IMG/VR virus record: IMGVR_UViG_3300027545_000001
Coordinates: 501 to 64,500 of that record
Source: a virus
Direction: 5' to 3' (one strand)
Length of the DNA: 64,000 nucleotides
Positions within the stretch are counted from its first letter, which is position 1; each line of letters starts with the position of its first letter. Of the stretch, positions 3,001 to 64,000 are shown piece after piece. Position numbers and translations under genes: made by a program. The notes below the pieces were generated by a model. That model ran no database searches. It had not been told where the DNA came from and saw nothing but the letters and a program-made list of their open reading frames with translations.

Positions 3001-5626
3001 CAATGCCTTCATCCCTATTGCCGTTAACCTGACGGCTCCAACTGGCCTCAGCGTCACTAACGCAATCATCACCTTTGGCTATTTAGACTACAACGGAAAC
3101 TGCACCACAAGGAACGACCCATGTATAGCGAATGCAGCGACGATCCCGAGCGGGACAGCACCTTTCTTATATGCAAGCGAGTCGCCAACTGGTTTGGCTT
3201 GCACTACATCGTGCACGATCACGATACCAGCGATCAGCGAAAGGATGCTGTACTACACAGCGAGCTTCCGCAACGCATCGAACGTGGTGGTGGCGACGAA
3301 CCCGACAATCATTGAAGCAGTTGAACCAATGGCTCCGATTACGCTCTCGCCATCGACGCTGCCGAATGGCACCGTGGGGATTGCATACTCGCAGGCCATC
3401 ACACCCAGTGGCGGGACTGGCCCATATACCTGTGATGTAACAGTTGGATCTATACCAGCAGGCACAACACAGACTGGCACAGGTAACTGCACCATCTCTG
3501 GAATCCCCACCACTGCTACCAGTTATGGATTCACCATGACGGCTACTGACTCACTTGGTAATAGTGGTGGACTCAGTTACTCTGTAACTATTGCTCCACC
3601 CACGATTATCATTGCCCCTAATGTCATGCCTACAGGCATTCAAGGGACACTATATGCACAGAGTCTAGGTGCTAGCGGCGGAATCTTCCCATACACTTAC
3701 TCACTCACAGTTGGATCTTTACCACCAGGACTGTTCATTAACTTTCCAACCATAGGGGTTATTAGTGGGACGCCAACATCCACCGGGACAACTAACTTTA
3801 CAGTCACAGCCGTAGACTCTCACGGGAACACTGGCACCCAGGCATATTCGATTACTATTACTGCTCCTGCCGTTGCTCTCGGGACAGTTGTAATAGGATC
3901 TACTGCTACAGCGGGTATAACACAGAGTGGAGTAAATCAACCATCCACATGGACTCCACTACATCTCACACAGACTAATAACCTAGCACCCACATTCTCT
4001 CTGTTCCCCAGCATGACTGGAGTATGCAATGTAGCTAAGGCGACATCTCTTAACTGCGGAACTCTGGGGTGCTCAACTACTAGCACTCCAGGTTGTGTCC
4101 CAGCACAAGGCTATCAAGGTGGAGTATACGTCCCTGCTAACTCAACTTATCCCAATGGGGAGGCAATATTCAACCCCTGGCAGCAAGCACAATCTACTCC
4201 TATTGGACAGTGGATCGGCTATACAGGTGGGCCATCTGGCACATTCCACTGCTCTACATCTGCTGCATGTTCAGCTAACTGGGAAATCTTTGATTCCACA
4301 TCCCTAGTAGGCTCAGTTGTCACATGCACTGCTGCCCCATGCCCAACTACTGCAACTGCCGCTGGGTATGTAGGCAATGTGGTATTCCAGCCAGCATCAG
4401 CAGGCGGGCCGTGGTACTACTTCGCCCCAGACATCGCAGACATTGCTAGCCGCTCTGGCCTAGCTGTACTCAGATACAACGGGCAGGGTCTAACAAATCC
4501 GTCTAATTGGCAGGGCTTTCTTCTACCTTGTCAGTCAGCCACTCCCACAGGATGCACTGGATTCACAACCATAAATGCTAACGTCGGAGGAGCCACTACT
4601 AGCCCATCAAGCTCCGGGTATGGCTGGTGTGGTCTAGTTTATGACGGTCGATATGTATACTATGTACCAACACATGGCGGACCCTCCACTAATCGGAATG
4701 TAATCCGGTTTGATACTGGCACTTCTGGGACTAATACCTTTGTTATCACTAACTTCAGTCACGTCAATATCGGTGCATTCAACTCCAGCGCAGGAGGCTA
4801 TCTATCTGGTGGATATGATGGTGGCCAGTATGTTTACTTCTTGCCTACTGACACTGTGATGGCACGTTACAATTCCAATGCTGCCTCATGTGCTGGAGGG
4901 TTCACGAGTTCTAGTTGCTGGTCTTTCTTCAGCTTGGCTAACTTAGGCACAGGCGGTAATCCTCAAGTAACTGGCAATGGGAATCTCGCATCCATTCAGA
5001 ATAACGGGTACTATGTTGGCGCTCAAATGGTATGGGATGCGGCAGATGCTAATGAATACATGTATATGGACCCATTTCAGCTTCGTTCTACTCTAGATAT
5101 GCAGAGCAACGTTATTCGGATCAAAGTAGGCACTTGCTCAGGCGGGACTCCTGGACAACAGACCTGTACCGGAACCTTTACCCCAATTGATGTATTCTCC
5201 TCTGGCTCTACATGGGAGATCTTTGACCTAGCAAACTTAGCCTCTAACCAAGAGTGGGCGATTGCCGGGTTAGCTTCACCCCCCGTATACGGACGTGGCA
5301 GCACTTGGGGTAATAATGCACAAGGTAATCAGTTAGTTATTGGTGGATTCCAGTTAGGCTGGATTAATACATCCAATATAGCAGATCCCAAGATAGGAAT
5401 GGTTGCAGATAACGGAGCCATCTACTCTATTCACGATGTGGCACATACGCTGAGTGATCCAACTGGGTGGACTCTCACACCACGGCCATCTAGTCAAACC
5501 AGTGGCACGACTAATCAGGTTAACGGCTGTATGGGTGGCGCATATGACTATGTAGACCAGACACTTTATGTTGCGTGCCCAGCAGTGTCACCTATAGAGA
5601 GCATGTTCAGACTATCACCTATGTAA
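32..5626 (+). CDS. Very large Thr/Ser/Gly/Cys-rich fibre or surface protein with two He_PIG-like Ig domains (5'-truncated)
   Basis: 1864-aa ORF; the frame is open back to base 2 (QSCINNPQCA-M), so the true start is upstream. Two Ig-like repeats at about 3340-3870 (LPNGTVGIAYSQAITPSGGTGPY; MPTGIQGTLYAQSLGASGGIFPY); C-terminal YDGRYVYYVP-type repeats. Confidence 0.7.
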   Translation: MAILQQQINMNGWCSSAITSLCTLDVALSMNMGGNTATKILSNAVTLPCCTSGSAAVVTTPATISAGTTGIDPWIYDSSPKITSYDAYKQGGCATVSGNIVTRVGTCTGYNNGSGVSNISDFFSFDWLQSGRIRLSTVSVADACLSTSSGTNAEAVITGTTGQNSLTLATSPGNTYTFFCGQGYSIMIRRHTADAGSSVNIQGVTASYVSGLDAETPSQGLETTCSHTIFSGGYLCMTDDAGASGWLTWYNPSNGTASIIGQMQTNAKTSGSDQWASQVCPYLPDIYMVVDDTASIPTWYCVVQDTNSKWVVLETDFGGTYTTNNNFSASASIGSGAATVGTYTLTYPANSVTISDLTPGSLGMDILSLANAYLGTTAVVPAAQPLIACVGAQVQQGNLLVRCYAGVGAQDGQNTMQWLFVISPGDHNPAHAGTTGAHIIAALNTWQYANSRFSGVHGTEDYGQASPYLGYGVEPIEPGDQVIGDTAMYVTTNSEVPGNSASAAPQVIACPTNSLGVTAPDTCVQLQINPATGFSDCTTGGCEPYYWTSKGLQGTAPGVPAVSQVGDFVCISTNQTGCGFRNATAQVLQLIQKGVGGDPSQWIFRLQYPNNGNNPLLNTTLKYIFFLPSNYASTHAGPEWPGLSFVGGLYSTFTNSTLGCYTLWPYATDPLGQNTIIDPQAGCVGHGYTRTWSVVQDNNGPAAGSPQTYWARYGSTFAAVLAAPNALVTETPVFDGLTNGPSAMSGWYQSHPGPSGENAISSEQQAFFDVRPLVGAATSAPAIVYSNVGGNVWVETFSGGDIIDADDFGNVGLGTNLNRKIYATNASSGPHPLVDISGPSSNICNPTCATTTAPIYTYCIPRVIGECNSGSALGSIYVNVPGIVIKFCFGDVTSGLSQDPQANDVCITNAVPVMQGVVQASTQQNDPNAAYQRVLTHMVGPPKQTQGQVGPHLMPDNSWVFFPAPYLDGNSRSNYIAKLPPYPSVDSFVRNAFIPIAVNLTAPTGLSVTNAIITFGYLDYNGNCTTRNDPCIANAATIPSGTAPFLYASESPTGLACTTSCTITIPAISERMLYYTASFRNASNVVVATNPTIIEAVEPMAPITLSPSTLPNGTVGIAYSQAITPSGGTGPYTCDVTVGSIPAGTTQTGTGNCTISGIPTTATSYGFTMTATDSLGNSGGLSYSVTIAPPTIIIAPNVMPTGIQGTLYAQSLGASGGIFPYTYSLTVGSLPPGLFINFPTIGVISGTPTSTGTTNFTVTAVDSHGNTGTQAYSITITAPAVALGTVVIGSTATAGITQSGVNQPSTWTPLHLTQTNNLAPTFSLFPSMTGVCNVAKATSLNCGTLGCSTTSTPGCVPAQGYQGGVYVPANSTYPNGEAIFNPWQQAQSTPIGQWIGYTGGPSGTFHCSTSAACSANWEIFDSTSLVGSVVTCTAAPCPTTATAAGYVGNVVFQPASAGGPWYYFAPDIADIASRSGLAVLRYNGQGLTNPSNWQGFLLPCQSATPTGCTGFTTINANVGGATTSPSSSGYGWCGLVYDGRYVYYVPTHGGPSTNRNVIRFDTGTSGTNTFVITNFSHVNIGAFNSSAGGYLSGGYDGGQYVYFLPTDTVMARYNSNAASCAGGFTSSSCWSFFSLANLGTGGNPQVTGNGNLASIQNNGYYVGAQMVWDAADANEYMYMDPFQLRSTLDMQSNVIRIKVGTCSGGTPGQQTCTGTFTPIDVFSSGSTWEIFDLANLASNQEWAIAGLASPPVYGRGSTWGNNAQGNQLVIGGFQLGWINTSNIADPKIGMVADNGAIYSIHDVAHTLSDPTGWTLTPRPSSQTSGTTNQVNGCMGGAYDYVDQTLYVACPAVSPIESMFRLSPM

Positions 5627-5645
5627 AGTGTAATGATTACACTTT
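5625..5645. repeat. Dispersed palindrome copy 1 (AAAGTGTAAT-G-ATTACACTTT)
   Basis: Perfect 10-bp arms; overlaps the stop of the 1864-aa gene. Confidence 0.95.
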
Positions 5646-5680
5646 TATGTGCATAATGGAGTAGGGGAGGGATCACTCTA

Positions 5681-5860
5681 ATGACTGCAATAACAATCTT
5701 CGAGCTTATAGGAGCCATCTTAGCCGGATTAGCTCAAGATCTTCCGAGTCTATTGTCTATTCTCCAGGATCTTGCTACGGCTGTTAATGCTACTCCTGGA
5801 ACTCCTGAACATACTGCCGCTGTTCAGAGAATTAAGGCCGCGACAGCTAAGGCCAAATAA
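5681..5860 (+). CDS. 59-aa protein with hydrophobic N-terminus (MTAITIFELIGAILAGLAQ...)
   Basis: Hand-translated; GGGGAGG RBS at about 5664-5670; below the ORF-track size cutoff. Confidence 0.6.
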   Translation: MTAITIFELIGAILAGLAQDLPSLLSILQDLATAVNATPGTPEHTAAVQRIKAATAKAK

Positions 5861-5874
5861 TAACCCAGAACATT

Positions 5875-5904
5875 CCCAGCCCAGACTGCTATGTTTGGGC
5901 TGGG
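5875..5904. terminator. Hairpin between convergent genes, probable terminator
   Basis: CCCAGCCCAGAC-TGCTAT-GTTTGGGCTGGG, 12-bp stem with one wobble. Confidence 0.55.
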
Positions 5905-6594
5905 TTAGCCCACCTCAGATGTCACATCTAGAGTCATCATATCCAATTCACCTACAGCAGACGAGTGGCTAGCCCCTCCAAAGTTCTGTACTAGTACCAT
6001 TCCGCCACCCTTCTTAGTAAGTCCGCTCATCTCCAGCACTCTATCTCTGGCATGTGCATCTCCAGGCTTACGGATCTTACCACTGGTGCATACCGGGCAG
6101 TCTCGAATCCATAAGACTTCTTCGCCACTCTCCATTGATCTATAACCGGGGGTCTTATCTGGCAATCCAGCAGGGGCAGATACCCAAGTCATCCCATCAC
6201 ATCTGTCACATACAACATTTACAGTGCGGGCATCTTCCACCATATCTCTTGTGATATCAACACTTGCAGTCTGAGCCACAGCTAATGCAGCTTGCGTGCT
6301 CTCCTTCTGCCACCACTTATTAAACTCCATAAGATCTATATTGCAAGCCTTAGCTATTGACTGCATAGACACCTTCTTGTATCTAGGCATCATGACTCGC
6401 TCTAAGAACTCTTGGAATCTTGGGTCAGGTGAGCAGGCGAGAGCCTGTCTTACATTAGGATTCTCTCGGGGATTCAACTTAGTCAGGTAAGCCCCATACT
6501 CCTTATCCTTTATGCCGAAACTGGTACTTGGCACCAGCCCTCTTATCTCGTCTCTCTCCTTTATTAATGCTGCTACTCTCTTATTCATACCCAT
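5905..6594 (-). CDS. Hypothetical protein with CxxC...CxxC zinc finger; possible terminase small subunit
   Basis: ORF 5905..6633; likely start ATG 6594 or 6588; CDRC and CPVC pairs; helical region and C-terminal RDRVLEMSG...GGG loosely resemble TerS. Confidence 0.45.
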   Translation of the reverse strand: MGMNKRVAALIKERDEIRGLVPSTSFGIKDKEYGAYLTKLNPRENPNVRQALACSPDPRFQEFLERVMMPRYKKVSMQSIAKACNIDLMEFNKWWQKESTQAALAVAQTASVDITRDMVEDARTVNVVCDRCDGMTWVSAPAGLPDKTPGYRSMESGEEVLWIRDCPVCTSGKIRKPGDAHARDRVLEMSGLTKKGGGMVLVQNFGGASHSSAVGELDMMTLDVTSEVG

Positions 6595-6605
6595 AGTATA
6601 CTTGA

Positions 6606-6624
6606 AAGTGTAATGATTACACTT
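6606..6624. repeat. Dispersed palindrome copy 2
   Basis: AAGTGTAAT-G-ATTACACTT between divergent genes. Confidence 0.95.
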
Positions 6625-6633
6625 AATAGGCAT

Positions 6634-8415
6634 ATGAAGATAACACTGGCCTTATTAGTCTTTTGCACTTCTCTGTTATCTCAAAATCAGCCCCAACCTT
6701 CCCCACTTGTTTCTAAGAGCGCACTCACAGTCGGAACACTACCATCCCCAGCAGCAGCGGGGTGGGTAGTTAGAATTAAAGATGGCGTATCACTTAGTGA
6801 CTGCTCAACTGGAGGGGGGGGCAACTCTGTATGGTGCTGGTACAACGGGAGTGTATGGCAACCTATGGGGGCTGGTGGATTCTCCCCACCAGTTGGGCAG
6901 CAGACTCAGTACCTTCAGATCCAACCTAATACAGGAAATAACACCACTACCAGATTCACATCATTACCCTATCTAAGTTCATCTGATTACAACTTCCCAG
7001 CACAGACAGGTACGATCTCTTCCATATCTCCAGGCAATAATAACATTACTATGACTCCTGTTCCGCTGGGGGTTAATGGGTCAGATGGTCATCATAAGTT
7101 ATGGGTGTCGGGAGGAACTGGAACAGCAGAGGCTTGTACTATAGTCGGCGGGTCCGGCACATCAGGCCAAACATCAGGAGTCATTACACTTAGCTGCTCT
7201 AACTCACATAGCGGAGCGTTCACAGTAAGTAGCGGGACAGTTGGGATTGAAGAAGCTATTATTCAGGCTTCTAATATGAGCACGCCATATGTAGTCATTC
7301 CAGCAGGTGACTATACTCTGCACACAGGTGTATATATTCAGGCTGGGATGTCTGATGGAAGGCTCACTGGAATTGGTGTCTCTCTCGCAGTAGCATCTGG
7401 GTTCACAGGAGAGATAGTCACTGGTGATGCTAGCTTATTTGGATTCACTCTTGAAGGATTCGAGGTTAACTGTACGAACTGTACTGGGACAGGTAACATT
7501 ATAAATCTTAGCCGACCAGAGAACTCAGTACAGGATAAGGTCTCTAAGATACGTGTAGACTTCGCACCAGTAGGTAGCATTATCTTGAACATGGATGGCG
7601 ACGAAGACAGCACCGTAGAAGACACTGGACTATTCAATGCTGCTGGCTCACTCACTAGCTCATCCGCATCTATCTCGTGGCATGTTCCCGCAGGCAACAT
7701 ACATGTAACTAATGTCACCACCTTTGGCTATCTTCTATTTAGTTATCAGATAGCAACCATCGTGCAGACTACAAGCGGGCCACTTCTGTTAGATGGAGCC
7801 AACCTAACTACAGTGATTGATGGAGGTTACATGTATGGTGGCCTCCAACCTAATAACTCCAGTTACTTCTTCTATAACATTTCTATAACTGGCACAATCA
7901 TGGTGCTAGCCCAGAATCAGGTAGCTTTCGTTGGCACTTATGATGGGACAGTAACTTTCCAAGGACTTGCTTATGCCCAAGCTACTCCAGCTACACTTTT
8001 CGGCAGTACTACATTAGGGTCTGGGGCATTCTTTCTTTATGGCGGCCCACAACTCTATGCGAATGGAGCTACACAAGGAACTCCGAATGGCCCACAGATT
8101 GGAGGGTTCCAGCCAGGAGGCATTACTAGCATAGGCTATAACTTCATATCTACTGAGACCGGCGCTAATAATGCAGTTGTAGGTAGTACTCTACTTGTAA
8201 CTGCTCCTCTTCCTGGTATGTGCGTGACAATGATGTTGTCTCACAGCCTACAGACTGGGGGAGTTAATACAGCAGCAATTAATGGGTCATCTGCAATAGA
8301 GATCCGATCACACTACAATCCTGCTAACCTATTGTCTACTCATGCCTATATCTCTGGAGGCATCATCAATATGTGTCTCTATAGCGGCGGCTATTGGTTA
8401 GACATGAGTCAATAA
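6634..8415 (+). CDS. Tailspike/fibre-like beta-helix protein with signal-peptide-like leader
   Basis: MKITLALLVFCTSLLS-Q leader; IEEAI...YVVIPAGDYTL beta-helix cap motif; ORF-track start 6613 lies inside the palindrome. Confidence 0.65.
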   Translation: MKITLALLVFCTSLLSQNQPQPSPLVSKSALTVGTLPSPAAAGWVVRIKDGVSLSDCSTGGGGNSVWCWYNGSVWQPMGAGGFSPPVGQQTQYLQIQPNTGNNTTTRFTSLPYLSSSDYNFPAQTGTISSISPGNNNITMTPVPLGVNGSDGHHKLWVSGGTGTAEACTIVGGSGTSGQTSGVITLSCSNSHSGAFTVSSGTVGIEEAIIQASNMSTPYVVIPAGDYTLHTGVYIQAGMSDGRLTGIGVSLAVASGFTGEIVTGDASLFGFTLEGFEVNCTNCTGTGNIINLSRPENSVQDKVSKIRVDFAPVGSIILNMDGDEDSTVEDTGLFNAAGSLTSSSASISWHVPAGNIHVTNVTTFGYLLFSYQIATIVQTTSGPLLLDGANLTTVIDGGYMYGGLQPNNSSYFFYNISITGTIMVLAQNQVAFVGTYDGTVTFQGLAYAQATPATLFGSTTLGSGAFFLYGGPQLYANGATQGTPNGPQIGGFQPGGITSIGYNFISTETGANNAVVGSTLLVTAPLPGMCVTMMLSHSLQTGGVNTAAINGSSAIEIRSHYNPANLLSTHAYISGGIINMCLYSGGYWLDMSQ

Positions 8416-8416
8416 A

Positions 8417-8433
8417 AGTGTAATGATTACACT
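8417..8433. repeat. Dispersed palindrome copy 3
   Basis: AGTGTAAT-G-ATTACACT between stop 8415 and RBS GAGGA. Confidence 0.95.
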
Positions 8434-8443
8434 CAGAGGACAA

Positions 8444-10618
8444 ATGAGACATTTGAGGCTTTTTCTTATCATTATTATATACACTCAGTGCTCTTGGGGT
8501 CTGGGGTCCATTAGTGGGTGGTGTGAACAGGGTAATTCTCTAGTAACTGCCTCTGGTACAGGCGGTACAGCGGCCCCTTACGGACCATTCTCATTCACAG
8601 GTACTTCCATAACTATTCTGGCCTCAACTCATAAGCAGGGTCCCACCCCATTCGTGGAAGTATATGATTCTATGGGATATAACGTAAGTGGGCAGATAGC
8701 TGTACAAGTATCTAATGTAGGTACTGTTGTTATTGGTGGGGCCTCAACTACTTCAGATACCTACACTTACACTATCTATGGGGCACTTGGGACTCCCACG
8801 GGTGGACCTATATCGAGGTTCTATCAGCAGTCATATCCACAATGCACTATTACTGTGTATCAGACAGGCACTTTGACCCTAGCCCCTTTGTTTTCAACGA
8901 ATACGACATCCCCAACACCCCTATCTAACCCATTTTCTGGTAACTTTAACGGCTATTATCAGGCTTTCGCGGCTGAAGGTCTCTATGATGTGCAAATATC
9001 CCAAGGTGGACTGCCTGCACCCTTCACTTTAGGGTCAGAGTCTAACATTGACCCTAATTTTGAGCCTCCTAACCTCTGGGTGACGAATGGAGCAGTTGTC
9101 AACCGGACTAAGAACGCCAAACTCGCTGATTTCATGGATATTCTGGACTTCGGGGCAGATCCAACAGGAAATACTGATATTTCCACTGCGCTCAATAACG
9201 CTTATGCCTCTTTGACTGCTGCTGGCGGTACTATTTGGTTTCCTCCAGGAATATACAAGTTATCTGTTGGGGTTAACTTCAATACCAATAACAAGCCTGT
9301 TCTACTCCAGGGATCTCCAGGTAATGCAGTAGTCATTAACTACACAGCCACATCTGGCACTGCTATCACATTCGACTATGGCACTGGCCTAACTATGGGC
9401 AAAGGACTTCGAGACATAGCTCTTGTTGGCACCGGCCCGACAGCTACCTCAGTCGGACTCAACATCGGAGGCACCGTCAATGGAGCACAGGGTACAGCTA
9501 TTTATGATTTCAAGATTGACAGCTTTGGAGTGGGAGTCACATTCGGTAGCAACACTTGGATAGTGAAGTTGGGGCATGGACTCATTAGGAATAGTGGCAA
9601 TAATGTAATATTCCCTAGCTCCTGCGTAGGTTGTGGTGAGAATATTCAGTGGGACCACATTACATTCGCTGATGCACCAGCCCCATTCACTAATTCAGTA
9701 TGGTTGCAGGCCGGTGAGCATAAGATGACTGACTGCTCCTTCGATCAGGCTCAACTCTCTATAGGGAATGGGACTACTTCACATGCCTTAGTGTCTGTGG
9801 TGGCAGGGCACTTTGAGAATCCTAACTATGCAGCCAACTCCACTCATTATGACTTCATCACACAGAGTAATAATGGAGGCAATCATCTTTCACTAGTGTC
9901 TCCATTCTTTAATCAGGATGATCTCAATCCGGCACATGGACCCTTTGCAGAGTTCATCACCACTAATGGCGGCGAGTTATTTGCTTTCGGTATTGAGATG
10001 TTCACTCCTATAGGGCCAGTGACTCAACTCATCACAGCCAATAATCAGGCCAATGTAACTGTTTATGGATTCAATGACGAGTCAGGCCAGACCACATCTT
10101 TAGTTGGAGGCAACAGCACCGGTTATCTAGTTCAGTTTCCCGGCACCGATCCAGGCCAGACTAATGGACTTAATAATGTTATCGGACCTGGAGCGGGCAC
10201 CAATAGAGGCGGCTCTATACTTGATGTGACTGGTAATATCCGATCCAGTTACAGTGCCAGTGTCCCATTCAGTGGGCAGTTGATATCCGAGATCCCGACA
10301 GGTAATTCTCCTATCGTGGTGAACTCGACTACGCCAGTCACTAATCTATTCTCGAACTATATTCTCTACACTGGTGTGCCAACTCCTACTCCTGCATCCA
10401 CCACCACTAAGATATTGGCTGCTTCATTCACTCTCTCTGGTGGGACATATAATGTCATTTTCCCTGGGGGCATATTTACCAACTCAAGCAGCTACTTCTG
10501 TAATGCCACCGACACCTCCGCTAAGAATCCCATGGAGATAGAACTCTCCAGTGGCACGGCATTCACTATCAGCGGGACCGGCAGTGATTCTGGGATGTTC
10601 ATCTGCACCGGATTCTAA
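8444..10618 (+). CDS. Tailspike-like protein (Pectate_lyase_3-type beta-helix) with signal-peptide-like leader
   Basis: RBS GAGGA then ATG 8444; MRHLRLFLIIIIYTQCSWG leader; DILDFGADPTGNTDISTALNNA...GGTIWFPPGIYK motif; LSNPFSGNFNGYYQAFAAEGLYDVQI resembles virion-attachment domains. Confidence 0.75.
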   Translation: MRHLRLFLIIIIYTQCSWGLGSISGWCEQGNSLVTASGTGGTAAPYGPFSFTGTSITILASTHKQGPTPFVEVYDSMGYNVSGQIAVQVSNVGTVVIGGASTTSDTYTYTIYGALGTPTGGPISRFYQQSYPQCTITVYQTGTLTLAPLFSTNTTSPTPLSNPFSGNFNGYYQAFAAEGLYDVQISQGGLPAPFTLGSESNIDPNFEPPNLWVTNGAVVNRTKNAKLADFMDILDFGADPTGNTDISTALNNAYASLTAAGGTIWFPPGIYKLSVGVNFNTNNKPVLLQGSPGNAVVINYTATSGTAITFDYGTGLTMGKGLRDIALVGTGPTATSVGLNIGGTVNGAQGTAIYDFKIDSFGVGVTFGSNTWIVKLGHGLIRNSGNNVIFPSSCVGCGENIQWDHITFADAPAPFTNSVWLQAGEHKMTDCSFDQAQLSIGNGTTSHALVSVVAGHFENPNYAANSTHYDFITQSNNGGNHLSLVSPFFNQDDLNPAHGPFAEFITTNGGELFAFGIEMFTPIGPVTQLITANNQANVTVYGFNDESGQTTSLVGGNSTGYLVQFPGTDPGQTNGLNNVIGPGAGTNRGGSILDVTGNIRSSYSASVPFSGQLISEIPTGNSPIVVNSTTPVTNLFSNYILYTGVPTPTPASTTTKILAASFTLSGGTYNVIFPGGIFTNSSSYFCNATDTSAKNPMEIELSSGTAFTISGTGSDSGMFICTGF

Positions 10619-10773
10619 ATGTTACTGCTCTGGTATAGACTATCTGTATTTGGTTATCCCTCATGCCATGAAGATTGTGCTAGGCACTATTGCATAGTCG
10701 TATATGATGTTGGGGACAAATTAGACTGTTCATATAAGATGTCCCTATCCTAACGAACTTTAATTTGCCTATT

Positions 10774-10790
10774 AGTGTAATCATTACAGT
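10774..10790. repeat. Dispersed palindrome copy 4
   Basis: AGTGTAAT-C-ATTACAGT, followed by TTTATGGCATAAT. Confidence 0.95.
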
Positions 10791-10820
10791 TTTATGGCAT
10801 AATCTTGGTGGAGGTATGCC

Positions 10821-11000
10821 ATGTTCTGCGACGGAACCACTATTTGCGCTGGATGTCACAGGCGGGTACCTGCTGAGGCTGGTATCTGTCTTTTGTGTGG
10901 GAACACATTAGAAGTGAGGACTATGCCAGCTATACAAGACTCAGAGATTGACAGGCTCATGAAGTATTATATGAGTGAGCTTGAAGAAGTAGCAGCATAG
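10821..11000 (+). CDS. 59-aa zinc-ribbon protein
   Basis: Hand-translated MFCDGTTICAGCHRRVPAEAGICLLCG...; GGAGG RBS. Confidence 0.65.
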   Translation: MFCDGTTICAGCHRRVPAEAGICLLCGNTLEVRTMPAIQDSEIDRLMKYYMSELEEVAA

Positions 11001-11010
11001 GAGTATACTT

Positions 11011-11331
11011 ATGTCTGTCACAGTACAGAACGTTCAAACATTTGCAACTGACATGCTTAACACCTTGACTGCTGAGGGAGTCTTTGATCCTAATGCCAAA
11101 GTGGATGACATGTTTCTATTCTGCTTTTGGCTGAGACTGCCAGTGTCCGCTCCAGGGGTTGTGGACCAAGCTAAGGCGGCTGCATTCGCTCAGACAGTAA
11201 GGTCTAAAATGGGACCTAACTACTTAGTAGGTATTGGTGGATTCTTTATGTCGGTTGCCTACTATCCCATACCATTAACTTCACCAGATGATGGGCCGGT
11301 TCCTGCACCGGCCCACCCTCTCCTACCTTAG
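11011..11331 (+). CDS. Hypothetical protein
   Basis: 106-aa ORF with GGAG RBS. Confidence 0.6.
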   Translation: MSVTVQNVQTFATDMLNTLTAEGVFDPNAKVDDMFLFCFWLRLPVSAPGVVDQAKAAAFAQTVRSKMGPNYLVGIGGFFMSVAYYPIPLTSPDDGPVPAPAHPLLP

Positions 11332-11529
11332 AGAATCAGCGAGCTTATCCAGCCAAGACTTATGGGTGGTCAGCACACATTTATATACATGCTCATGACC
11401 ACCCACATCACAGACCTGATAACCGTTCTCACACTTGCCACAATTCTCTTTAGGCACTACTGGGTAGTTGGCGACACCAACCACTACAAGACTGAGTAAC
11501 ATCAATCCTGCAATCATTATCTTCTTCAT
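11323..11529 (-). CDS. Small exported Cys-rich protein
   Basis: MKKIMIAGLMLLSLVVVGVA leader, then CGKC...C...C; start ATG 11529 preferred over 11565. Confidence 0.55.
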   Translation of the reverse strand: MKKIMIAGLMLLSLVVVGVANYPVVPKENCGKCENGYQVCDVGGHEHVYKCVLTTHKSWLDKLADSLR

Positions 11530-11630
11530 ACCTATATAGTGCAGATCACCCCAGAAATATCTCACAATAATAATTATTAAATCTAATTAACAAAACTTGA
11601 CTTATGCCATGTCACCATGTTACGTTCATT

Positions 11631-20893: not shown

Positions 20894-21343
20894 TTAATCC
20901 TCAGTCTCCTCCTCCTTAGATTTGCTGATGCGGAGTGTATAGCTGGTACTCTTCTTCATGCTAGCCAGTATCACAGCAGGCGCAACACCATTAGAGAGCA
21001 GAAGCTCCTTATCCAGCACTGATCTCTCTGCTCCGAAGTAGCTCACTCGAATGTCATCTAAGAGAGCCTTGCCCACTTTGTGCTTGCCCAGTATATTCTT
21101 AATCTTAGTCTCAAGAGGCTTACGCATCTTAGCCGCCTCTGCTGCCTGCTCCTTCCAAGGCATATCCTCTTCAATGAGTCGCCGCAGTAGGAGAAGGTCT
21201 TTCTTGTCACTGATGAGATCACTAAGCTGTGGTGTCTTCTCTTCTTGGGGTGGGGGAGCGATAGGGTGCTCCTTAGCTACCGGCACCATACTAGGTGCTG
21301 GTGGCGCGGCTTCTTGTAAGCGTTGCTTTAGTTCGTTAGTCAT
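20894..21343 (-). CDS. Hypothetical protein
   Basis: 149-aa ORF in a packed operon. Confidence 0.6.
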   Translation of the reverse strand: MTNELKQRLQEAAPPAPSMVPVAKEHPIAPPPQEEKTPQLSDLISDKKDLLLLRRLIEEDMPWKEQAAEAAKMRKPLETKIKNILGKHKVGKALLDDIRVSYFGAERSVLDKELLLSNGVAPAVILASMKKSTSYTLRISKSKEEETED

Positions 21344-21635
21344 GTGATTTACTCCGTTCTGCTAGTTCTTTGTTGACACAATTCATTGCACTTTCCTTGG
21401 TAAGGAACTCAGAATATCCACAGTATGCTTGACCAACATATGCCTTCCATAACTCGTGCTCTACCCGAGCTGTTCCGACCACAGCGCCCTCCTTGGTTAC
21501 GCATAAATAGGTTTCTGGGAATGACTCAGTTCTATGCAGAGACCAAGTGCAGTCCAAAGAGCTATCTCTGTGTGTAGGTTTTGGTGATCCACAACCAAGG
21601 AACCCTAACATCAATAGCAAATAGGCGTGTCTCAT
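21336..21635 (-). CDS. Putative lipoprotein
   Basis: MRHAYLLLMLGFLG-C lipobox-like leader; AGGAGG RBS. Confidence 0.55.
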   Translation of the reverse strand: MRHAYLLLMLGFLGCGSPKPTHRDSSLDCTWSLHRTESFPETYLCVTKEGAVVGTARVEHELWKAYVGQAYCGYSEFLTKESAMNCVNKELAERSKSHD

Positions 21636-32252: not shown

Positions 32253-32278
32253 GAGGAGTGGGGAGAAGGAGCAATAAA

Positions 32279-32962
32279 ATGCGCAACTTACAACGTGGCG
32301 GGCTGCTTATCGCAACAGCCCTAGTAGCAGTTCTTTCAGCACATGCGTCGACGGTGAACTGTGCCTCAGCAACCGGAGTCATCACGTATGGAGTAGCCAA
32401 CACCGACTCGTTTTTCTGTGGCAATGTGGTGTTCTCCAACTTCATACTAGATGCGGTGTCAGGTGGGGCTGGCAGTGTCACCATCATTGGTGCAGACTAC
32501 AACACAGTAACGGGGCAGGTTGTACTTAACCTTGATCCTGATCTAGTTAGTGACCAAGATGACCTGCTCACCTATCAAGCTGCTGCCTTCACAGGGTTCA
32601 AGATCACTGGTCTTGATGCTTCCATTGGTGGTGATGATGCTGCTATGGATGAGCGTGCTTGCCTCCTGCCTGTGCCGACCAGTGGGCCATCTGCTTATCT
32701 ATGTCCCAAGGGAACTCAGTTAGGGTCTATAGCTATAGCAAGTGGAGATCCTGATATGCCGGTGTTTTCTAATCCCTTTGGTTACATAGGGCCAGTCTAT
32801 GTAGTAAAGGATATTGGTACAGGCCCAGGGGGATCTGAGTCAGTAGTAAATCAGAGCTTTGAAACTGCCAATGATACTCCCCCAGTTCCAGAGCCAGCCA
32901 GCCTGCTTCTACTTGGTGGTGGTCTGTTTGGTCTAGGTTTATGGAAGAGGCGTAAAGCCTAG
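32279..32962 (+). CDS. PEP-CTERM sorting-domain surface protein
   Basis: Signal peptide MRNLQRGGLLIATALVAVLSAHA; C-terminal VPEPASLLLLGGGLFGLGLWKRRKA; AAGGAG RBS. Confidence 0.92.
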   Translation: MRNLQRGGLLIATALVAVLSAHASTVNCASATGVITYGVANTDSFFCGNVVFSNFILDAVSGGAGSVTIIGADYNTVTGQVVLNLDPDLVSDQDDLLTYQAAAFTGFKITGLDASIGGDDAAMDERACLLPVPTSGPSAYLCPKGTQLGSIAIASGDPDMPVFSNPFGYIGPVYVVKDIGTGPGGSESVVNQSFETANDTPPVPEPASLLLLGGGLFGLGLWKRRKA

Positions 32963-41455: not shown

Positions 41456-41803
41456 TCATGAGGTTAACTGATTGTTGAGGTTGTTCAGTTGGTTAATAAG
41501 GCTGTTCAATAGTGTCTGCAAGTTAGGCTGTGCTGGCGCTGGAGCCTTGAGCAGTGCAGTCTGCACCTGTTCAATAGATGCCTTCACTGAGGTTATCTGA
41601 GATAAGATGGCCGACTGCTTCACTGTGGCTGGAGCACCCAAGCCAGGGGTAGCAGTGATGGTGGGAGTAGTGACAGTGGGGATCTGCGCTTGTTGCACCA
41701 GCACTGCTGTCTGATCTATCTTGTTATACAAGTCCTGTATGATCGTGTTGGTGATCGGGTCCGGGTGCTCTAGCCTAGTGTATGGCAGGAATCCAGAGGC
41801 CAT
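41456..41803 (-). CDS. Hypothetical virion-associated protein
   Basis: TAATG-coupled start MASGF; GGGAGG RBS. Confidence 0.55.
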   Translation of the reverse strand: MASGFLPYTRLEHPDPITNTIIQDLYNKIDQTAVLVQQAQIPTVTTPTITATPGLGAPATVKQSAILSQITSVKASIEQVQTALLKAPAPAQPNLQTLLNSLINQLNNLNNQLTS

Positions 41804-47097: not shown

Positions 47098-47114
47098 AGT
47101 GTAATGATTACACT
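47098..47114. repeat. Dispersed palindrome copy 18
   Basis: AGTGTAAT-G-ATTACACT between a stop and an RBS. Confidence 0.95.
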
Positions 47115-58803: not shown

Positions 58804-61800
58804 ATGAAGAACATCTTAGTTGGTCTGCTCTTTATCTCTACAGCACTTTGTCAGATAAGCCCCCCAGCAGGTGGAGGCGGCACAGGTGGCTCAGGTGCCA
58901 AGAACCTCAGTACCAGTTGGTCCACGGCTACTACCACAGCATCTATTAATGTATCTTCCTTTAACCTGACCACAGCTTCAGTCAACTCTGTCATACCAGC
59001 ATGTTCCACAGGCACAGGGTACTCAGGCACTCCCCCCACTGGATTCCCCACTGGCCCCTTGACTCCGCTCTCATTCGTAATGACCCCGACATTCAGCGGG
59101 TCAAATCTAACCACAGAGACATTCACATTCAGCAGTATTGCTAATGGAGTCTGCACAGTTAACAGTAATGGTGGGGCAGGGGCAGTCGGACCACAGGGAC
59201 CAGCAGGAGCTAATGGCAGCAATGGAGCACCTAGTTGCGGAGTAGTTGGAGCCTGCACGATTGTTTATGCCACCACTTCAGTGAACACAACTGGCCCTGG
59301 TGCAGGCGCTCTCATGATGCAACAGGGTGGTGCTCAGACTCCCCCAGCTAATGCAGTTGGTATTTCTGCTCCTGTATCTGTTCCGAACTGTGCGCCTTCC
59401 AATGGCCCAATGAATGTTCTTTGGGGAGTACCAGCTACAGGGTTAATCCATACCTCGAATGGTTGTCCATCATTCTGGACTACCAGCCTTGTTGCCACGA
59501 CGGATGCAGCAGCCCTAGTCGGAACAGATACCTCTTTTGTGACGGGGCCAACGGGAACAATCGTAGCTGGAGACGCCGCTATGGGGAGCACCAATGGAGG
59601 CGTTACCGACAGCACCTTCCCGATTCAGAATATCTGCGGTGTCAGCACTATCCCTGTCACGGGAACGGGAGGGAGAATTAATGTCACCTGTATACCCCAA
59701 CTTGCTGGGGATGTCACGAACACACCTGGAGGAACAGGGGAAAACATAACAGTTAATGGGATTAATACCGTTCCTCTCTGTACTACATTCACGCCGACCA
59801 ACGGGCAACCTTTAACATACACAACCGGGGGTACGCCTAACCCATGCTGGGGTCCGGTTTCCTCTGCGGGAGGCGGCAATGTTACAGCTGGCACGCTAAC
59901 ATCTGGGTCAATACCTAAAGCCAACGGAGCCACCTCGATCACCAATTCTGGGCTTACCGAGTTCTCCGGGACCCTTGCCTATGGAGGCACCGTGAACTTT
60001 AGCGGTTCCACCCATACAGCACCAGCCATAGTCGTGGCTACGGCTGGTGCGCTCCCAGCCACCTGCAACGCGGCTATCGGTGAGGTAGCCATTGTCACCG
60101 GGGCTACGGCTGGGCAAAACTGGTACTTCTGCTTGACGACGAACACTTGGACGCAGCAGTTAAACAGCGGTGGGGGTAGCACTGGGTTCACTGCCACAGC
60201 AGGTTCAGGCGGCGTTACAGCCAACCTATTAGCTAGCCGGGACACCAGCAATCCTACAGAATACATACTTCCTACGTCTGGTGGATGCGGTGTCGGAATT
60301 GCAGCCACGACCGCCGCAGCTTCATCCACATTTTTACTTCAGACGGTAGCTGGTTCAGTGTTTACTGGAGTAGCTGATAATGCCATAACAGCAGGGCACA
60401 TTCTAGTCGGCGGAACGACAACACCAGGACGAGTATCAGATAGCGGTGTCTCTGCCATTACATCTATTTCTCCTTCCACTTGTGTAGTTGGAGCAGCTAC
60501 GGCCAGCGCCACCACTGGGAGTACCGTCACTCTTATATGGTATGGGGTGGGTACCTTTGGTGCTCAGGCAAGTAGCGGGGGTACAGGCAACGTGGCAACA
60601 CAGCATACCGTCACATTCTCAGCTACTCCGACATTCACCGGCGCATCGGCTTCAGCGGGTACCGTCGATGATTTCGTAATGAGCACGGCCCTCTCGGCCA
60701 ATATCACATCATCAACACTAGCGACCGTCACGAGCGGGCAAGTCCTAAACTTCACCTTTACGCAAGCTGCTAGTGGTGGGCCTTTTACCGTCGTAATGCC
60801 TACGGGATTTGACGCCTGCACAGTGGCTCCAACCGCAAGCACGCTCACGACATGTAGCTATTGGTACGACGGAACAAATGCACACTTGGTGGCAACAAAT
60901 AGTACTTGTCCGAGTTGTGCAGGTGGCGCGTTCTTTGCGGGGAACACGACGAATCCAACAATACCGGTGAATGACTTCGGAATCATAGGATTCAACACTA
61001 CTTCTGCGACGGCCTATGGATGGCAACCGTCATCAACAGCGCCATCTGGCACCCAGTTCATGACGGCGGGTACTCCATCGGGCGGCTATTCTCCAGTAGG
61101 CTATACGAGCACAATAGGTCTATCCAGCCTTGCTACTCAGGCTACTAATACGGTAGTCATGAATGCTACCGGCGGGACAGCAGCACCCACGGCAGTAGCG
61201 ATGCCCACCTGCACGACTGGCGCGGATCTCTACAATACGAGCACGAACTCATGGTCATGCGTGAGCACAGGTGGTAGCACCGGTATAACAGTCACAGCCA
61301 ATAGCACCGGCGTCACAGCAAATCTGCTTGCCAAGCAAGACGCGAGTAACCCTGGCCAATACCAAACCGTAACGGCATCTGGCGGATGCGGACAGGGTAT
61401 TGCTGCTACAACCGCCACATCAACAACATTTCTATTGCAGACCCTACCAGGGGCAGTCTTGACTGGGGTGGCAGATGGCACAATCACTGCGGGGCATATT
61501 CTAATAGGAGGAGCCACAACACCAGGAAGAGTCGCAGATAGTGGCCAGACTTCTCCCGCCTTATTAGCTTCCACCGTATGCGTGGTAGGGTTAGCCACAG
61601 ACAGTGCTACAGTCGGCAATCCCGTAACCTTAATTTGGTATGGAGCGGGGAGTGCTGGGGGCGCAGCGGCGGCGACCAACCTTAGTAATCTTGCAGGGGT
61701 TTCTATCAACACATCGCTGCTTTCTGCTGCTAGTGTAGATCTGGGGAGCACAGCTAATCCGTGGAGGAATCTATATCTATATGGGTCTGGCACATATGGG

Positions 61801-62355
61801 AGCACATATTTAAAGTTGACTGGCACACCAACCTCTACGCGCACATGGACGTTTCAAGATGCCACAGATACATTGGTTGGTTTGGCAACCACTGACACAC
61901 TGACCAATAAAACACTCACCAGTCCAACGCTCATCACCCCTGTCCTGGGAGCGGCCACGGCAACGTCTCTACTAGCCAGCGGGACTTTGGACGGTCAAGC
62001 ACCCATCACGGTTACGACAGGATCATCCGCTACTCTCGGGGGAACCTACAAGTCCGGCTATACATTCAATGAGAACGCCACAGCAGGCACGGCCATCACA
62101 TATACGCTCCCGACCGCTGCGGCAGGCTTGCAGTACTGCGTGGGCAATGCCAACGGTGGAGCGGCCAATACAGGAACATTGGAGCTTCTTACGTCAGCGT
62201 CTGGGCAATTCATCATCTTCACTGATGGCACGCTGAGCGCCACTGGGGGATTCGTCCAATCAGGAGGAGCGGCGGGAGACTTCGGATGCGTGGTCGGTGT
62301 GGACTCTACGCATTGGTATTTCCGGCCATCGCAAGGGACATGGACAAAGCATTGA
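58804..62355 (+). CDS. Long fibre-like protein with signal-peptide-like leader, short collagen-like stretch and duplicated cement-like domain
   Basis: MKNILVGLLFISTALC-Q leader; GAVGPQGPAGANGSNG; two roughly 130-150 aa repeats; TDTLTNKTLTSP motif. Confidence 0.7.
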   Translation: MKNILVGLLFISTALCQISPPAGGGGTGGSGAKNLSTSWSTATTTASINVSSFNLTTASVNSVIPACSTGTGYSGTPPTGFPTGPLTPLSFVMTPTFSGSNLTTETFTFSSIANGVCTVNSNGGAGAVGPQGPAGANGSNGAPSCGVVGACTIVYATTSVNTTGPGAGALMMQQGGAQTPPANAVGISAPVSVPNCAPSNGPMNVLWGVPATGLIHTSNGCPSFWTTSLVATTDAAALVGTDTSFVTGPTGTIVAGDAAMGSTNGGVTDSTFPIQNICGVSTIPVTGTGGRINVTCIPQLAGDVTNTPGGTGENITVNGINTVPLCTTFTPTNGQPLTYTTGGTPNPCWGPVSSAGGGNVTAGTLTSGSIPKANGATSITNSGLTEFSGTLAYGGTVNFSGSTHTAPAIVVATAGALPATCNAAIGEVAIVTGATAGQNWYFCLTTNTWTQQLNSGGGSTGFTATAGSGGVTANLLASRDTSNPTEYILPTSGGCGVGIAATTAAASSTFLLQTVAGSVFTGVADNAITAGHILVGGTTTPGRVSDSGVSAITSISPSTCVVGAATASATTGSTVTLIWYGVGTFGAQASSGGTGNVATQHTVTFSATPTFTGASASAGTVDDFVMSTALSANITSSTLATVTSGQVLNFTFTQAASGGPFTVVMPTGFDACTVAPTASTLTTCSYWYDGTNAHLVATNSTCPSCAGGAFFAGNTTNPTIPVNDFGIIGFNTTSATAYGWQPSSTAPSGTQFMTAGTPSGGYSPVGYTSTIGLSSLATQATNTVVMNATGGTAAPTAVAMPTCTTGADLYNTSTNSWSCVSTGGSTGITVTANSTGVTANLLAKQDASNPGQYQTVTASGGCGQGIAATTATSTTFLLQTLPGAVLTGVADGTITAGHILIGGATTPGRVADSGQTSPALLASTVCVVGLATDSATVGNPVTLIWYGAGSAGGAAAATNLSNLAGVSINTSLLSAASVDLGSTANPWRNLYLYGSGTYGSTYLKLTGTPTSTRTWTFQDATDTLVGLATTDTLTNKTLTSPTLITPVLGAATATSLLASGTLDGQAPITVTTGSSATLGGTYKSGYTFNENATAGTAITYTLPTAAAGLQYCVGNANGGAANTGTLELLTSASGQFIIFTDGTLSATGGFVQSGGAAGDFGCVVGVDSTHWYFRPSQGTWTKH

Positions 62356-63908
62356 AACTTATCATTTTGCTATTCTCATTCTTCTTGGCATGTGAAGGCC
62401 AAGTCATGCCAGTGATACTGTCGGGCGGGGTAGTCACGAGCGGCGGTGCAACCCCGACCTTTATCCAATCAACGGCAACCCCATCCGATACCCAGACGCA
62501 AAGCCCATTCTCAACAGGAACCGGGAGCATTACTACATGTTTCCCAAACTCCACGCAATCAGGGAATACCATAATCGTAAGACTTACATCATCATCCACT
62601 CTGGCCAACATATCCTCAGTAACAGATGACGGTTCGTCATCTAACACTTATACGCAACAGAAAACGGAAGTGGTAAGCAGCAGAACCCTAGCGATCTATA
62701 CTGCGCCAGTAACCAACGTTTCCAGATGCACCACCGTACTATATACGTCTGGGCCAGTAGCTACGGATAATGAGGTCAAGATCTATGAGTTTAGTAATAT
62801 AGCTACAAGTAGTCCTCTGGATGTGTCATGCAATGGAAGCGTAACCAGCGGAACAGCCCCGGCTTGCTCTTCTTCCATGACTCCCACCGTAGCGGGAGAC
62901 TTAATATTGACCTTCGTTGATATTAAGACTTTCACCTCTACGCCAACCGGGGCGATGACCTTCACAGCGCAAACTGGCACCACCCCCACATATCAACTCC
63001 TACCTGGAGACGCAGACGGCACTTCTTGGTCCGCCGGTGATTATGCTATTGACTCGGCTACTTCTGCCATTACCCCCTCCATAACTATATCTCAGTCCAC
63101 TACGCAGGCCCAAGTCGTGGCCATTGCCTTAAAAGCCGCATCTAGTGGGTCTGGATTCAGTGGCATACACGTCAATAATGTGGCAAAGTTTGCACCTCAG
63201 TTCGCCTACTCAACAGCGATAACGGGTACGGCACAGGTAATTCAATTCCCATGTGTAGGTAATGATCTGTGGGTAATCGTAGGAATAGGAGACAATACTA
63301 CCGTTTCTAGCATAAACACAGATAGCAATAGTAACACTTGGACCGGCCTCACGCGAGTAGACAGCACAGGCGATGGCTTCTCCATTCAGTGGTATCACTC
63401 AGATTCGGCAACTTGCAGTGGCACCGAGAAGTTTACAATCAACTTCGCCGCGGCTCCTTCATTCATGACGGTTGTGGCTGTGGACATCTCGAACGCCACG
63501 GGCTATGATTCTTCAGCAACATGCGCAGCCGGATCTACTCCATGTCCTATAAACGTTTCTAGCGGGGGGGATGCGAACAGCACTACTACTATTTCTGGGG
63601 CAAAGATTACCCCGAGTACGGCGGCCGGAGTGGTTCTTAGCTATCAGAATCAGGATTTCGACAGTATGTGTGCAGTTTCTCCTGGAAACTTTGTTGCAGA
63701 TTTAGAGGGCGGTCCTAGCGGGGGAGCGTGTGCGTCTGGATCAGCCTCCATATATAATTATGAAGGTTCAGGATTCGAGCAAGACATGGGGCTTCTTGTG
63801 AAATATTATTCCAGCACTGCTCAAATTTCTATAACATGGTCCATTGCCAATACTCAATCCAGAGCGATTGGCCCTGAATTTAGCTCTACCGTGGCGGTGA
63901 AGCAGTGA
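62352..63908 (+). CDS. Ser/Thr-rich beta protein with signal-peptide-like leader
   Basis: Likely TTG start at 62352 (TTGA overlap): MKLIILLFSFFLACEG-Q; tandem GN.I.V-type beta domains. Confidence 0.65.
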   Translation: MKLIILLFSFFLACEGQVMPVILSGGVVTSGGATPTFIQSTATPSDTQTQSPFSTGTGSITTCFPNSTQSGNTIIVRLTSSSTLANISSVTDDGSSSNTYTQQKTEVVSSRTLAIYTAPVTNVSRCTTVLYTSGPVATDNEVKIYEFSNIATSSPLDVSCNGSVTSGTAPACSSSMTPTVAGDLILTFVDIKTFTSTPTGAMTFTAQTGTTPTYQLLPGDADGTSWSAGDYAIDSATSAITPSITISQSTTQAQVVAIALKAASSGSGFSGIHVNNVAKFAPQFAYSTAITGTAQVIQFPCVGNDLWVIVGIGDNTTVSSINTDSNSNTWTGLTRVDSTGDGFSIQWYHSDSATCSGTEKFTINFAAAPSFMTVVAVDISNATGYDSSATCAAGSTPCPINVSSGGDANSTTTISGAKITPSTAAGVVLSYQNQDFDSMCAVSPGNFVADLEGGPSGGACASGSASIYNYEGSGFEQDMGLLVKYYSSTAQISITWSIANTQSRAIGPEFSSTVAVKQ

Positions 63909-64000
63909 GACTATTATTAGCATTTTTATCATTAGTATCACTAGCTCATTCCGCTACATATACGGCGGCCACCTGCGGAAGTGCGGATGTACAGTCTGCC
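63905..64000 (+). CDS. Signal-peptide-bearing protein, 3'-truncated
   Basis: GTGA overlap; MRLLLAFLSLVSLAHS-ATYTAATCGSADVQSA, open to the window end. Confidence 0.6.
   Translation, partial: MRLLLAFLSLVSLAHSATYTAATCGSADVQSA

Follow-up and report, generated by a model that had tools for sequence, protein, structure and literature searches.

Two beta-helix spike proteins of a soil phage begin with signal-peptide-like leaders and may be exported before they reach the particle

Introduction

Why should a protein built like a phage tailspike begin with what looks like a secretion signal? The question is raised by two adjacent plus-strand genes of a soil phage, IMG/VR virus record IMGVR_UViG_3300027545_000001. 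The stretch analyzed here, referred to as the window, comprises bases 501–64500 (64,000 nucleotides) of the 66,875-bp record, and positions are given in window numbering unless marked otherwise. The two open reading frames (ORFs) span 6613/6634..8415 and 8423/8444..10618, each with two possible start codons, and their products are referred to as the 6634 and 8444 proteins. An initial annotation, made from the DNA letters, described the pair as tailspike-like beta-helix proteins with signal-peptide-like leaders, each gene directly preceded by a copy of a palindrome, and suggested that exported depolymerases of this kind could remodel host polysaccharide from outside or be added to particles after export.

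A lack of signal peptides has been used to recognize phage fibre proteins (PMC6199706). In the literature on signal peptides of tailspikes or fibres, no description of leader-bearing tailspikes was found, and the paper on the Tunturi acidobacterial viruses does not mention leader-bearing spikes. The ORFs, leaders and folds at this locus are nevertheless as initially described. In the explanation that we consider best, both genes are late and would encode Sec-exported, disulfide-stabilized beta-helix proteins that bind or cut polysaccharide. That both spikes are exported, fold oxidatively and join particles at lysis is a tentative reading, to which we assign a probability of roughly 0.45.

Fold and domain layout of the two proteins

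The gene at 8444..10618 encodes a leader-bearing tailspike-like protein of 724 residues, and the public gene call (P0001) has the identical start. The protein contains DFGADPTGNTDIST...GGTIWFPPGIY, and matches Pfam PF12708 (Pect-lyase_RHGA_epim) over residues 230–308 (1.8e-10; 41.4 bits against a gathering cut-off of 27) as well as a PHROG tail-spike family (1.6e-6). An AlphaFold2 (AF2) model built from 28 homologues, with a mean predicted local distance difference test (pLDDT) score of 74, has five parts: a detached leader helix (residues 2–13), a low-confidence insertion (30–128), a beta-sandwich (130–200), a beta-helix (230–580, pLDDT >90), and a C-terminal beta-sandwich (640–724). The top Foldseek matches in the PDB are phage tailspikes (K2-2 tailspike protein (TSP), Sf6, Kp7 gp52, CBA120 TSP4, and HK620), and the model is clearly tailspike-like.

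On the plus strand, the predicted Sec signal peptide (residues 1–19) occupies 8444..8500, and is followed at 8501..9088 by an N-terminal spike domain of head-binding-like character, comprising a strand, GWCEQG (residues 20–29), the insertion (30–124), and a main part (125–215), with a Cys27/Cys134 pair. The pectate-lyase-like beta-helix (9131..10183) holds the vicinal Cys394/Cys397, and the C-terminal beta-sandwich (10361..10615) a covarying Cys686/Cys721 pair. Within the beta-helix, E399, H405, D410, C431-S-F-D434, Q437, and H456-F-E458-N are invariant across phage and cellular homologues, which suggests a conserved candidate active site with the acidic residues E399, D410, D434, and E458 as the candidate catalytic set. 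The 95-residue insertion that splits the N-terminal domain (8531–8815, residues 30–124) is modeled with low confidence and is common only to P0030 and P0031 (53–58% identity). Other fibres could dock on it, by analogy with branched tailspike systems.

The 6634 protein (593 residues; 6634..8415) is more divergent in sequence, with no match in Pfam or PHROGs, and a Foldseek search of the PDB with its AF2 model gave no match at E ≤ 1e-3. An exhaustive structural aligner, applied to residues 110–470 of a partly low-confidence model, aligned it to beta-helix enzymes and tailspikes at Z 12–15, among them RbmB (Z 14.2), WceF (Z 13.5), and VexL (Z 12.9). The beta-helical folds claimed in the initial annotation are thus borne out by comparison with tailspikes, for the 6634 protein by the exhaustive aligner only, and both proteins are predicted to be right-handed beta-helices.

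The predicted Sec signal peptide of the 6634 protein (residues 1–16; 6634..6681, plus strand, as for all its parts) forms a helix (4–11) outside the fold in the model. It precedes a small N-terminal domain (residues 18–80; 6685..6873) with a Cys57/Cys68 pair and weak similarity to terminal domains of other fibre proteins. A conserved neck and first-rung module (residues 75–240; 6856..7353; Cys168/Cys188) recurs at 45–60% identity in ~45 other spike proteins. The right-handed parallel beta-helix extends over residues ~110–470 (6961..8043), with 110–310 confidently modeled, and a C-terminal module (residues 503–593; 8140..8412; Cys530/Cys581) is common to P0035, P0036, and P0043 (41–47% identity). 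In other phages, the 6634-type beta-helix is fused behind an 8444-type N-terminal domain; here it follows a different N-terminal module, and no particle-binding domain was recognized in the protein.

Leaders and cysteines

Leaders were judged by Sec-type criteria: a basic n-region, an h-region of 7–15 residues, a polar c-region, and small residues at −3 and −1. Translated from the ATG at 6634, the 6634 protein begins MKITLALLVFCTSLLS/QNQ, where the slash marks the predicted cleavage site (longer read MKITLALLVFCTSLLSQNQ...), and divides as MK-ITLALLVFCTSLL-S/Q, with Leu at −3 and Ser at −1. From the ATG at 8444, the 8444 protein begins MRHLRLFLIIIIYTQCSWG/LGS (longer read MRHLRLFLIIIIYTQCSWGLGS...), and divides as MRHLR-LFLIIIIY-TQCSWG/L, with Ser at −3 and Gly at −1. 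Both leaders have the layout of Sec/signal peptidase I (SPI) substrates, with a basic n-region, a hydrophobic core and small residues at −3/−1. By eye, neither has a twin arginine (Tat) or a lipobox Cys at +1. Other sorting signals were ruled out: no Pfam match to type IX secretion system C-terminal domains or PEP-CTERM was found, and by eye the C-termini are unlike sorting signals.

A larger sample is provided by the N-terminal domain behind the 8444 leader, GxCEQGG...YPxCTVTVY...NPF...G.wfFYA..G.YDV. With a profile of it, 7,435 clusters (50% identity) are matched at E ≤ 1e-3 and 479 of them at E ≤ 1e-30; the domain is very widespread, and most of the top family members carry a leader. When 127 leader-bearing members are numbered from the first conserved Cys, the leaders prove free in sequence yet fixed in pattern relative to that residue. 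Position −8 is Ala, Gly, or Ser in 117 (Ala 83, Gly 30, Ser 4), with A/L/V/S/G/I/C at position −10 in 120. Pro is frequent at −11 and −13 and Leu from −14 to −16, and the first ten residues contain on average 1.6 Lys/Arg and 0.07 Asp/Glu. This fixed-distance pattern reads as the SPI (−3, −1) rule. The mature end that it predicts (−7) coincides exactly with the initiator Met of leaderless homologues (MQKIQGWSEQGG...; MQxxQG[WYF]x). The 8444 leader fits the family pattern, with S-W-G/L placing Ser, Trp, and Gly at −10/−9/−8.

Leaders are accompanied by cysteines. Both conserved Cys of the domain are present in 135/138 leader-bearing members compared with 3/23 leaderless ones (Fisher 2e-19), a statistic that, like those that follow, does not account for phylogeny; the three leaderless members with the pair look like shortened gene calls. 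Beyond the domain, leader-bearing spikes have a median of eight Cys, with an even count in 98/126 (binomial 3e-10), and leaderless spikes a median of two. In the 8444 protein, Cys 27/134, 394/397, and 686/721 are nearby and covarying pairs, as are 57/68, 168/188, 280/283, and 530/581 in the 6634 protein. Of all mature Cys in the two proteins, only the invariant C431 of the 8444 protein is without a nearby partner. This pattern is what oxidative folding outside the cytoplasm predicts. Taken together, the fixed-distance motif, the coincidence with leaderless starts, and the Cys-pair and even-Cys statistics strongly favor real Sec/SPI leaders.

Gene neighborhood and a possible link to the virion

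All homologues for which phage context was fetched lie in phage structural modules. In one contig (L025), a leader-bearing spike gene directly follows an SU10-type adaptor gene and overlaps its stop codon, an arrangement repeated in the contig that carries P0085. The leader-bearing spike of a 64.9-kb relative (L027) lies in the tail module, between nozzle and immunoglobulin-like (Ig) genes on one side and internal-protein genes on the other. Leaderless spikes in two further genomes (L026 and L007) occupy the identical slot beside the adaptor gene. In each neighborhood examined, the sole gene with a leader and many Cys is the spike, the neighbors containing 0–0.6% Cys.

The N-terminal domain is the best conserved part of the family (56–59% mean column identity, compared with 28% for the whole protein). 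Its sole PDB profile matches are N-terminal domains of podophage tailspikes, one of them deposited as “Tailspike head-binding domain”, at E 0.007–0.08 over ~45 residues. What the initial annotation called an attachment-like domain is a very widespread N-terminal spike domain weakly similar to solved tailspike head-binding domains. Since the conserved domain behind the leader is the one that starts leaderless, adaptor-adjacent tailspikes, the 8444 protein is most likely the true tailspike of the phage. For this protein, synteny and the conserved docking-type domain also lead us to favor addition to particles after export over a free depolymerase.

Indirect experimental support for leader-bearing proteins that may travel with particles comes, by analogy, from Cellulophaga phage phi10:1, in which gp091–gp094 are annotated “structural protein” from tandem mass spectrometry (MS/MS) of virions and each carry a classical signal peptide at the N-terminus (KC821618). 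The neighboring pectate lyase, gp095, also begins with a signal peptide. No paper discussing this oddity of the phi10:1 structural proteins was found.

The leader-bearing gene block, the phage and its host

The ends of the record share an exact 126-bp repeat (genome 9–134 = 66750–66875) after eight odd bases. Because of this overlap the genome is circular or circularly permuted, with a length of about 66,741 bp (~66.7 kb); IMG/VR classifies the record as linear.

On the circularized genome, the two genes are the last of seven consecutive plus-strand fibre or spike genes that all start with signal-peptide-like leaders, and the trait is clade-wide; neither point was part of the initial annotation. 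The block begins at 58804..64000 with genes of 1183, ~522, and 544 codons, the first two at 58804–62355 and ~62340–63908. The 544-residue gene continues past the window end, where it is followed by genes for leader-bearing proteins of 95 and 2132 residues, the latter a giant gene that wraps round to window position 5626. Leader-like N-termini occur in 4 of ~50 other ORFs, compared with seven consecutive genes in the block, and this clustering is more than chance. Leader proteins of this genome contain 2.1% Cys, compared with 0.86% in the structural module.

The four leader-like proteins outside the block are small, and are encoded at ~41803–42132, 21336–21635, and 11323–11565 (minus strand), and at 32258–32962 (plus strand). 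Among them are a 109-residue protein just downstream of a nozzle-like gene, and a 99-residue protein with a lipobox-like LGFLGC, perhaps a spanin or a lipoprotein.

Portal, capsid, adaptor, and terminase genes are present. The minus-strand structural module comprises terminase, an SU10-like portal, a major head protein, an SU10-type adaptor, and a 1138-residue nozzle-like protein. Its core virion proteins are without leaders, and no other fibre or spike candidate was found in it, which leaves the phage without a leaderless one. A short-tailed phage of SU10-adaptor type, infecting Acidobacteriota, is the best explanation. The host is probably a member of this phylum: all 14 loci with homologues in species-representative genomes belong to Acidobacteriota (Bryobacteraceae, Bryobacterales, Terriglobia, and Solibacteraceae). 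A Bacteroidota host, suspected from Gln at +1 in five of the seven leaders, was ruled out by these 14 loci; the +1 residue in the N-terminal spike-domain family, mostly Arg or Asn, also counts against it. Among 50,697 cultured-phage records, neither megablast of 6000–11000 nor tblastn of the 8444 protein and of its N-terminal domain gave a match.

A minus-strand gene at 5905–6594 stands on the opposite strand amid the leader-bearing block. Its longest ORF encodes 242 residues (to 6633, into the palindrome), or ~229 from a start near 6594, with a helix-turn-helix-like stretch and two CxxC pairs. A 209-residue counterpart in a related 65-kb phage (L005) adjoins the terminase genes, just before a leader-bearing spike. 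The gene could encode a small terminase or a regulator, and its position hints at a rearrangement of the block. Within 5681–5904, the giant gene is followed by a 59-residue ORF with a hydrophobic N-terminal half, and a hairpin with a 9-bp stem (5875–5883/5896–5904) separates this ORF from the convergent minus-strand gene.

Start codons and a repeated palindrome

As initially reported, each of the two genes is directly preceded by a perfect copy of a 15-bp palindrome, GTGTAATGATTACAC. The first (6608..6622) ends 11 nt upstream of the 6634 ATG, and the second (8418..8432) begins 2 nt past the stop codon of the 6634 gene and ends 11 nt before the 8444 ATG. Each copy contains an in-frame ATG (6613 and 8423), which would add seven residues (MITLNRH and MITLRGQ, respectively); the leader is kept from either start. 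Copies with two mismatches or fewer number 24 in the window, compared with 0.09 expected, and the spacing of palindrome, 10–11 nt, and ATG is identical in layout at 6634, 8444, and 58804.

The copies span 5628–58793, with 25 on the circular genome, and have the extended consensus AAA-GTGTAATSATTACAC-TT. Many lie 8–15 nt upstream of start codons on both strands, and the palindrome often immediately precedes a Shine–Dalgarno-like AGGAG or GAGGA (for example at 47099, 50367, and 52463). Naive ORF calls gain spurious “MITL” or “IKCNHY” N-terminal extensions from the ATG within the palindrome. In the giant gene, a copy lies inside the leader-coding region (genome 66470–66510, just past the window end), where it supplies some codons for the hydrophobic core of the leader MKTFILQ-SVIITL-FCSLAHS/Q. 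A scan of 5500–11100 for promoters and terminators gave nothing exceeding shuffled expectation.

Export and assembly: weighing the explanations

In the mechanism that we propose, the leader would take the unfolded chain through SecYEG, and SPI would cleave after Ser16 in the 6634 protein and after Gly19 in the 8444 protein. Both proteins would then fold and pair their cysteines in the periplasm. It is tempting to speculate that the 8444 spike meets the head-and-tail core, built in the cytoplasm, only when the inner membrane is breached during lysis, and that any pool of free spikes meanwhile works on the surface glycan of the host itself. The 6634 protein would be another such spike, differing in its N-terminal module. 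In vitro, spike-less particles accept added P22 tailspike, and late docking is therefore physically plausible.

Several observations weigh against this reading. To our knowledge, there is no described route that would bring a Sec-exported protein onto a tailed-phage particle. Export, cleavage sites, and disulfides are inferred for both proteins, and the argument for export is one of sequence comparison. A tree-controlled test of leader against Cys pair, on a tree of 98 columns, yielded two well-supported contrasts and does not establish that the association is phylogenetically independent; it may partly reflect shared ancestry. The similarity to head-binding domains is marginal, and the AF2 model of the 6634 protein is confident only over residues ~110–310, with low confidence over half of its length. 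In this genome both genes lie outside the tail module, in a separate plus-strand block that starts divergently from the terminase end, and no docking domain common to all seven block proteins was found. The detection of phi10:1 proteins by MS/MS of virions could reflect co-purifying secreted proteins. Finally, the homologues of the beta-helix core in acidobacterial cells are simply secreted enzymes, so that a role outside the virion would be natural.

This last point leads to the main alternative, which we regard as rather unlikely: the proteins, produced late and exported, would act as free glycanases or adhesins in the periplasm or at the surface and never join the particle. They would trim host exopolysaccharide or O-antigen so that progeny escape the debris, destroy receptors, and possibly mediate superinfection exclusion, leaving receptor binding by the virion to other parts such as the nozzle. 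The evidence for export serves this account equally well, and the location of the genes and the missing common docking domain suit it. Secreted cellular homologues of ~360 residues (Bryobacterales and Terriglobia) keep all candidate catalytic residues, exported beta-helix glycanases are known (WceF), with RbmB and VexL among the structural matches, and a signal-bearing, tail-hydrolase-like esterase of Xanthomonas phage PBR31, gp40, has been read as a lysis helper (PMC10975493). What the phage forms have and the cellular enzymes do not, however, is a strongly conserved N-terminal domain. Leaderless spikes encoded between adaptor and nozzle genes also begin with this domain, and leader-bearing versions occupy that slot, overlapping the adaptor stop codon. 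Free enzymes would moreover leave the phage without a recognizable receptor-binding protein, and ~17 kb, a quarter of the genome, is much for accessory enzymes. Superinfection exclusion, one of the functions first proposed for the pair, has no specific support. Synteny and the head-binding-like domain are equally compatible with ordinary virion spikes made in the cytoplasm, where, as far as we know, all known tailed phages assemble. Their hydrophobic N-termini would be uncleaved structural or membrane-tethering segments, or weak signals that the virion pool mostly escapes, and the cysteines would oxidize after release. Against this stand the leaders themselves: their sequences are not conserved, and only the physics of a signal peptide and the Ala/Gly at −8 are kept, which is unexpected of a docking segment. 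The starts of leaderless homologues coincide exactly with the predicted cleavage site, leaders track Cys pairs and even Cys counts, and AF2 leaves the leader as a detached helix. We consider cytoplasmic spikes quite improbable.

It could also be asked whether the leaders are made at all, true starts lying downstream of the hydrophobic stretches. In favor of such an artefact, the public call for the 6634 gene (P0034, 516 residues) starts at Met78, whose ATG has a GGGAG ~13 nt upstream. Ahead of Met78, however, another 84 codons are open in this frame, whereas stops abound in the other two; this upstream stretch encodes a mini-domain with a Cys pair, and the palindrome–ATG layout is repeated at 6634, 8444, and 58804. 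On these grounds we think that P0034 is a truncated call. The public call of the 8444 gene includes the leader, hundreds of homologues keep theirs, and an artefact is barely credible. Export followed by docking at lysis remains our preferred explanation for the two genes. Its extension to a very large clade of soil phages, whose receptor-binding spikes would travel via Sec, be cut by SPI, fold oxidatively in the periplasm, and dock at lysis only, is a slightly more doubtful proposition.

Implications

If true, two-compartment assembly would be a route not described for tailed phages. Virions would be completed across two compartments with the help of host Sec, signal peptidase, and Dsb; each would be a new host factor and a further point at which phage resistance could arise. 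Disulfide bonds could lock the receptor-binding proteins of soil phages and help them persist. The host-recognition genes of many soil viruses would also be misclassified by annotation pipelines in which a signal peptide leads to a protein being dropped as “non-structural” or counted as a secreted metabolic enzyme. For further work, the domain family offers thousands of members, natural leader/leaderless pairs in the same slot, and a predicted mature N-terminus.

Comparison with known systems

Signal-bearing phage genes have been reported in other settings. In Porphyromonas gingivalis phages they were read as envelope modifiers (PMC10367356), and a survey of prophage-encoded carbohydrate-active enzymes (CAZymes) that excluded tail fibres found signal peptides in 5% (PMC13507307). 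In contrast to the present case, the Porphyromonas phages and PBR31 involve no named tailspike or fibre with a head-binding domain, and no clade-wide pattern or Cys signature. A closer parallel is phi10:1, in which gp091–gp095 are likewise consecutive genes at the late, fibre end with signal peptides, one of them of pectate-lyase type. However, its host belongs to Bacteroidota, its leaders follow the Gln(+1) rule, and its proteins have no sequence relationship to those described here.

Among cellular proteins, Pantoea stewartii WceF is a Tat-exported beta-helix trimer with a tailspike-like fold and a P22-like head domain (PMC7949094). Together with Vibrio RbmB and Achromobacter VexL, it represents exported beta-helix glycanases that act on the producer's own exopolysaccharide, and the 6634 model matches all three (Z 12.9–14.2). 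These are cellular genes in polysaccharide clusters, whereas the present genes are phage-borne, with a phage-spike N-terminal domain in the family. The Tat signal of WceF, moreover, implies export in the folded state, in contrast to the Sec-type leaders without twin arginine found here.

The acidobacterial secreted proteins of ~360 residues (L011–L024; Bryobacterales and Terriglobia) consist of a leader and a beta-helix only, and are 44–49% identical to residues 238–560 of the 8444 protein, from which they differ in lacking both the N-terminal spike domain and the C-terminal domain. Their neighbors are cellular genes (kinases, an extracytoplasmic function (ECF) sigma factor, and transporters), and the two loci L013 and L017 are not in polysaccharide clusters. 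On these contigs from metagenome-assembled genomes of Bryobacterales/Terriglobia (L013, 7830–8966; L017, 7854–8942), one homologue lies beside an ECF sigma factor and Ser/Thr kinase pair, and the other beside PD40 and two-component genes. By sequence, these proteins appear to form an uncharacterized acidobacterial enzyme family shared with phage spikes.

The nearest structural counterparts of the 8444 protein are the podovirus tailspikes (P22, Sf6, HK620, and K2-2 TSP, 8iq5), which similarly combine a right-handed beta-helix body with a C-terminal beta-sandwich. Solved head-binding domains (7eeq and 9vyg) align with the ~100-residue N-terminal domain through its core motif, VY.tGT.T.a.iY...l.NP..a...G.f, at E ~0.01. 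As in podoviruses, the spike gene of the relatives adjoins the adaptor gene, whereas in this genome it lies outside the tail module. The features that set the 8444 and 6634 proteins apart from podovirus tailspikes are a cleavable-looking Sec leader and paired cysteines throughout.

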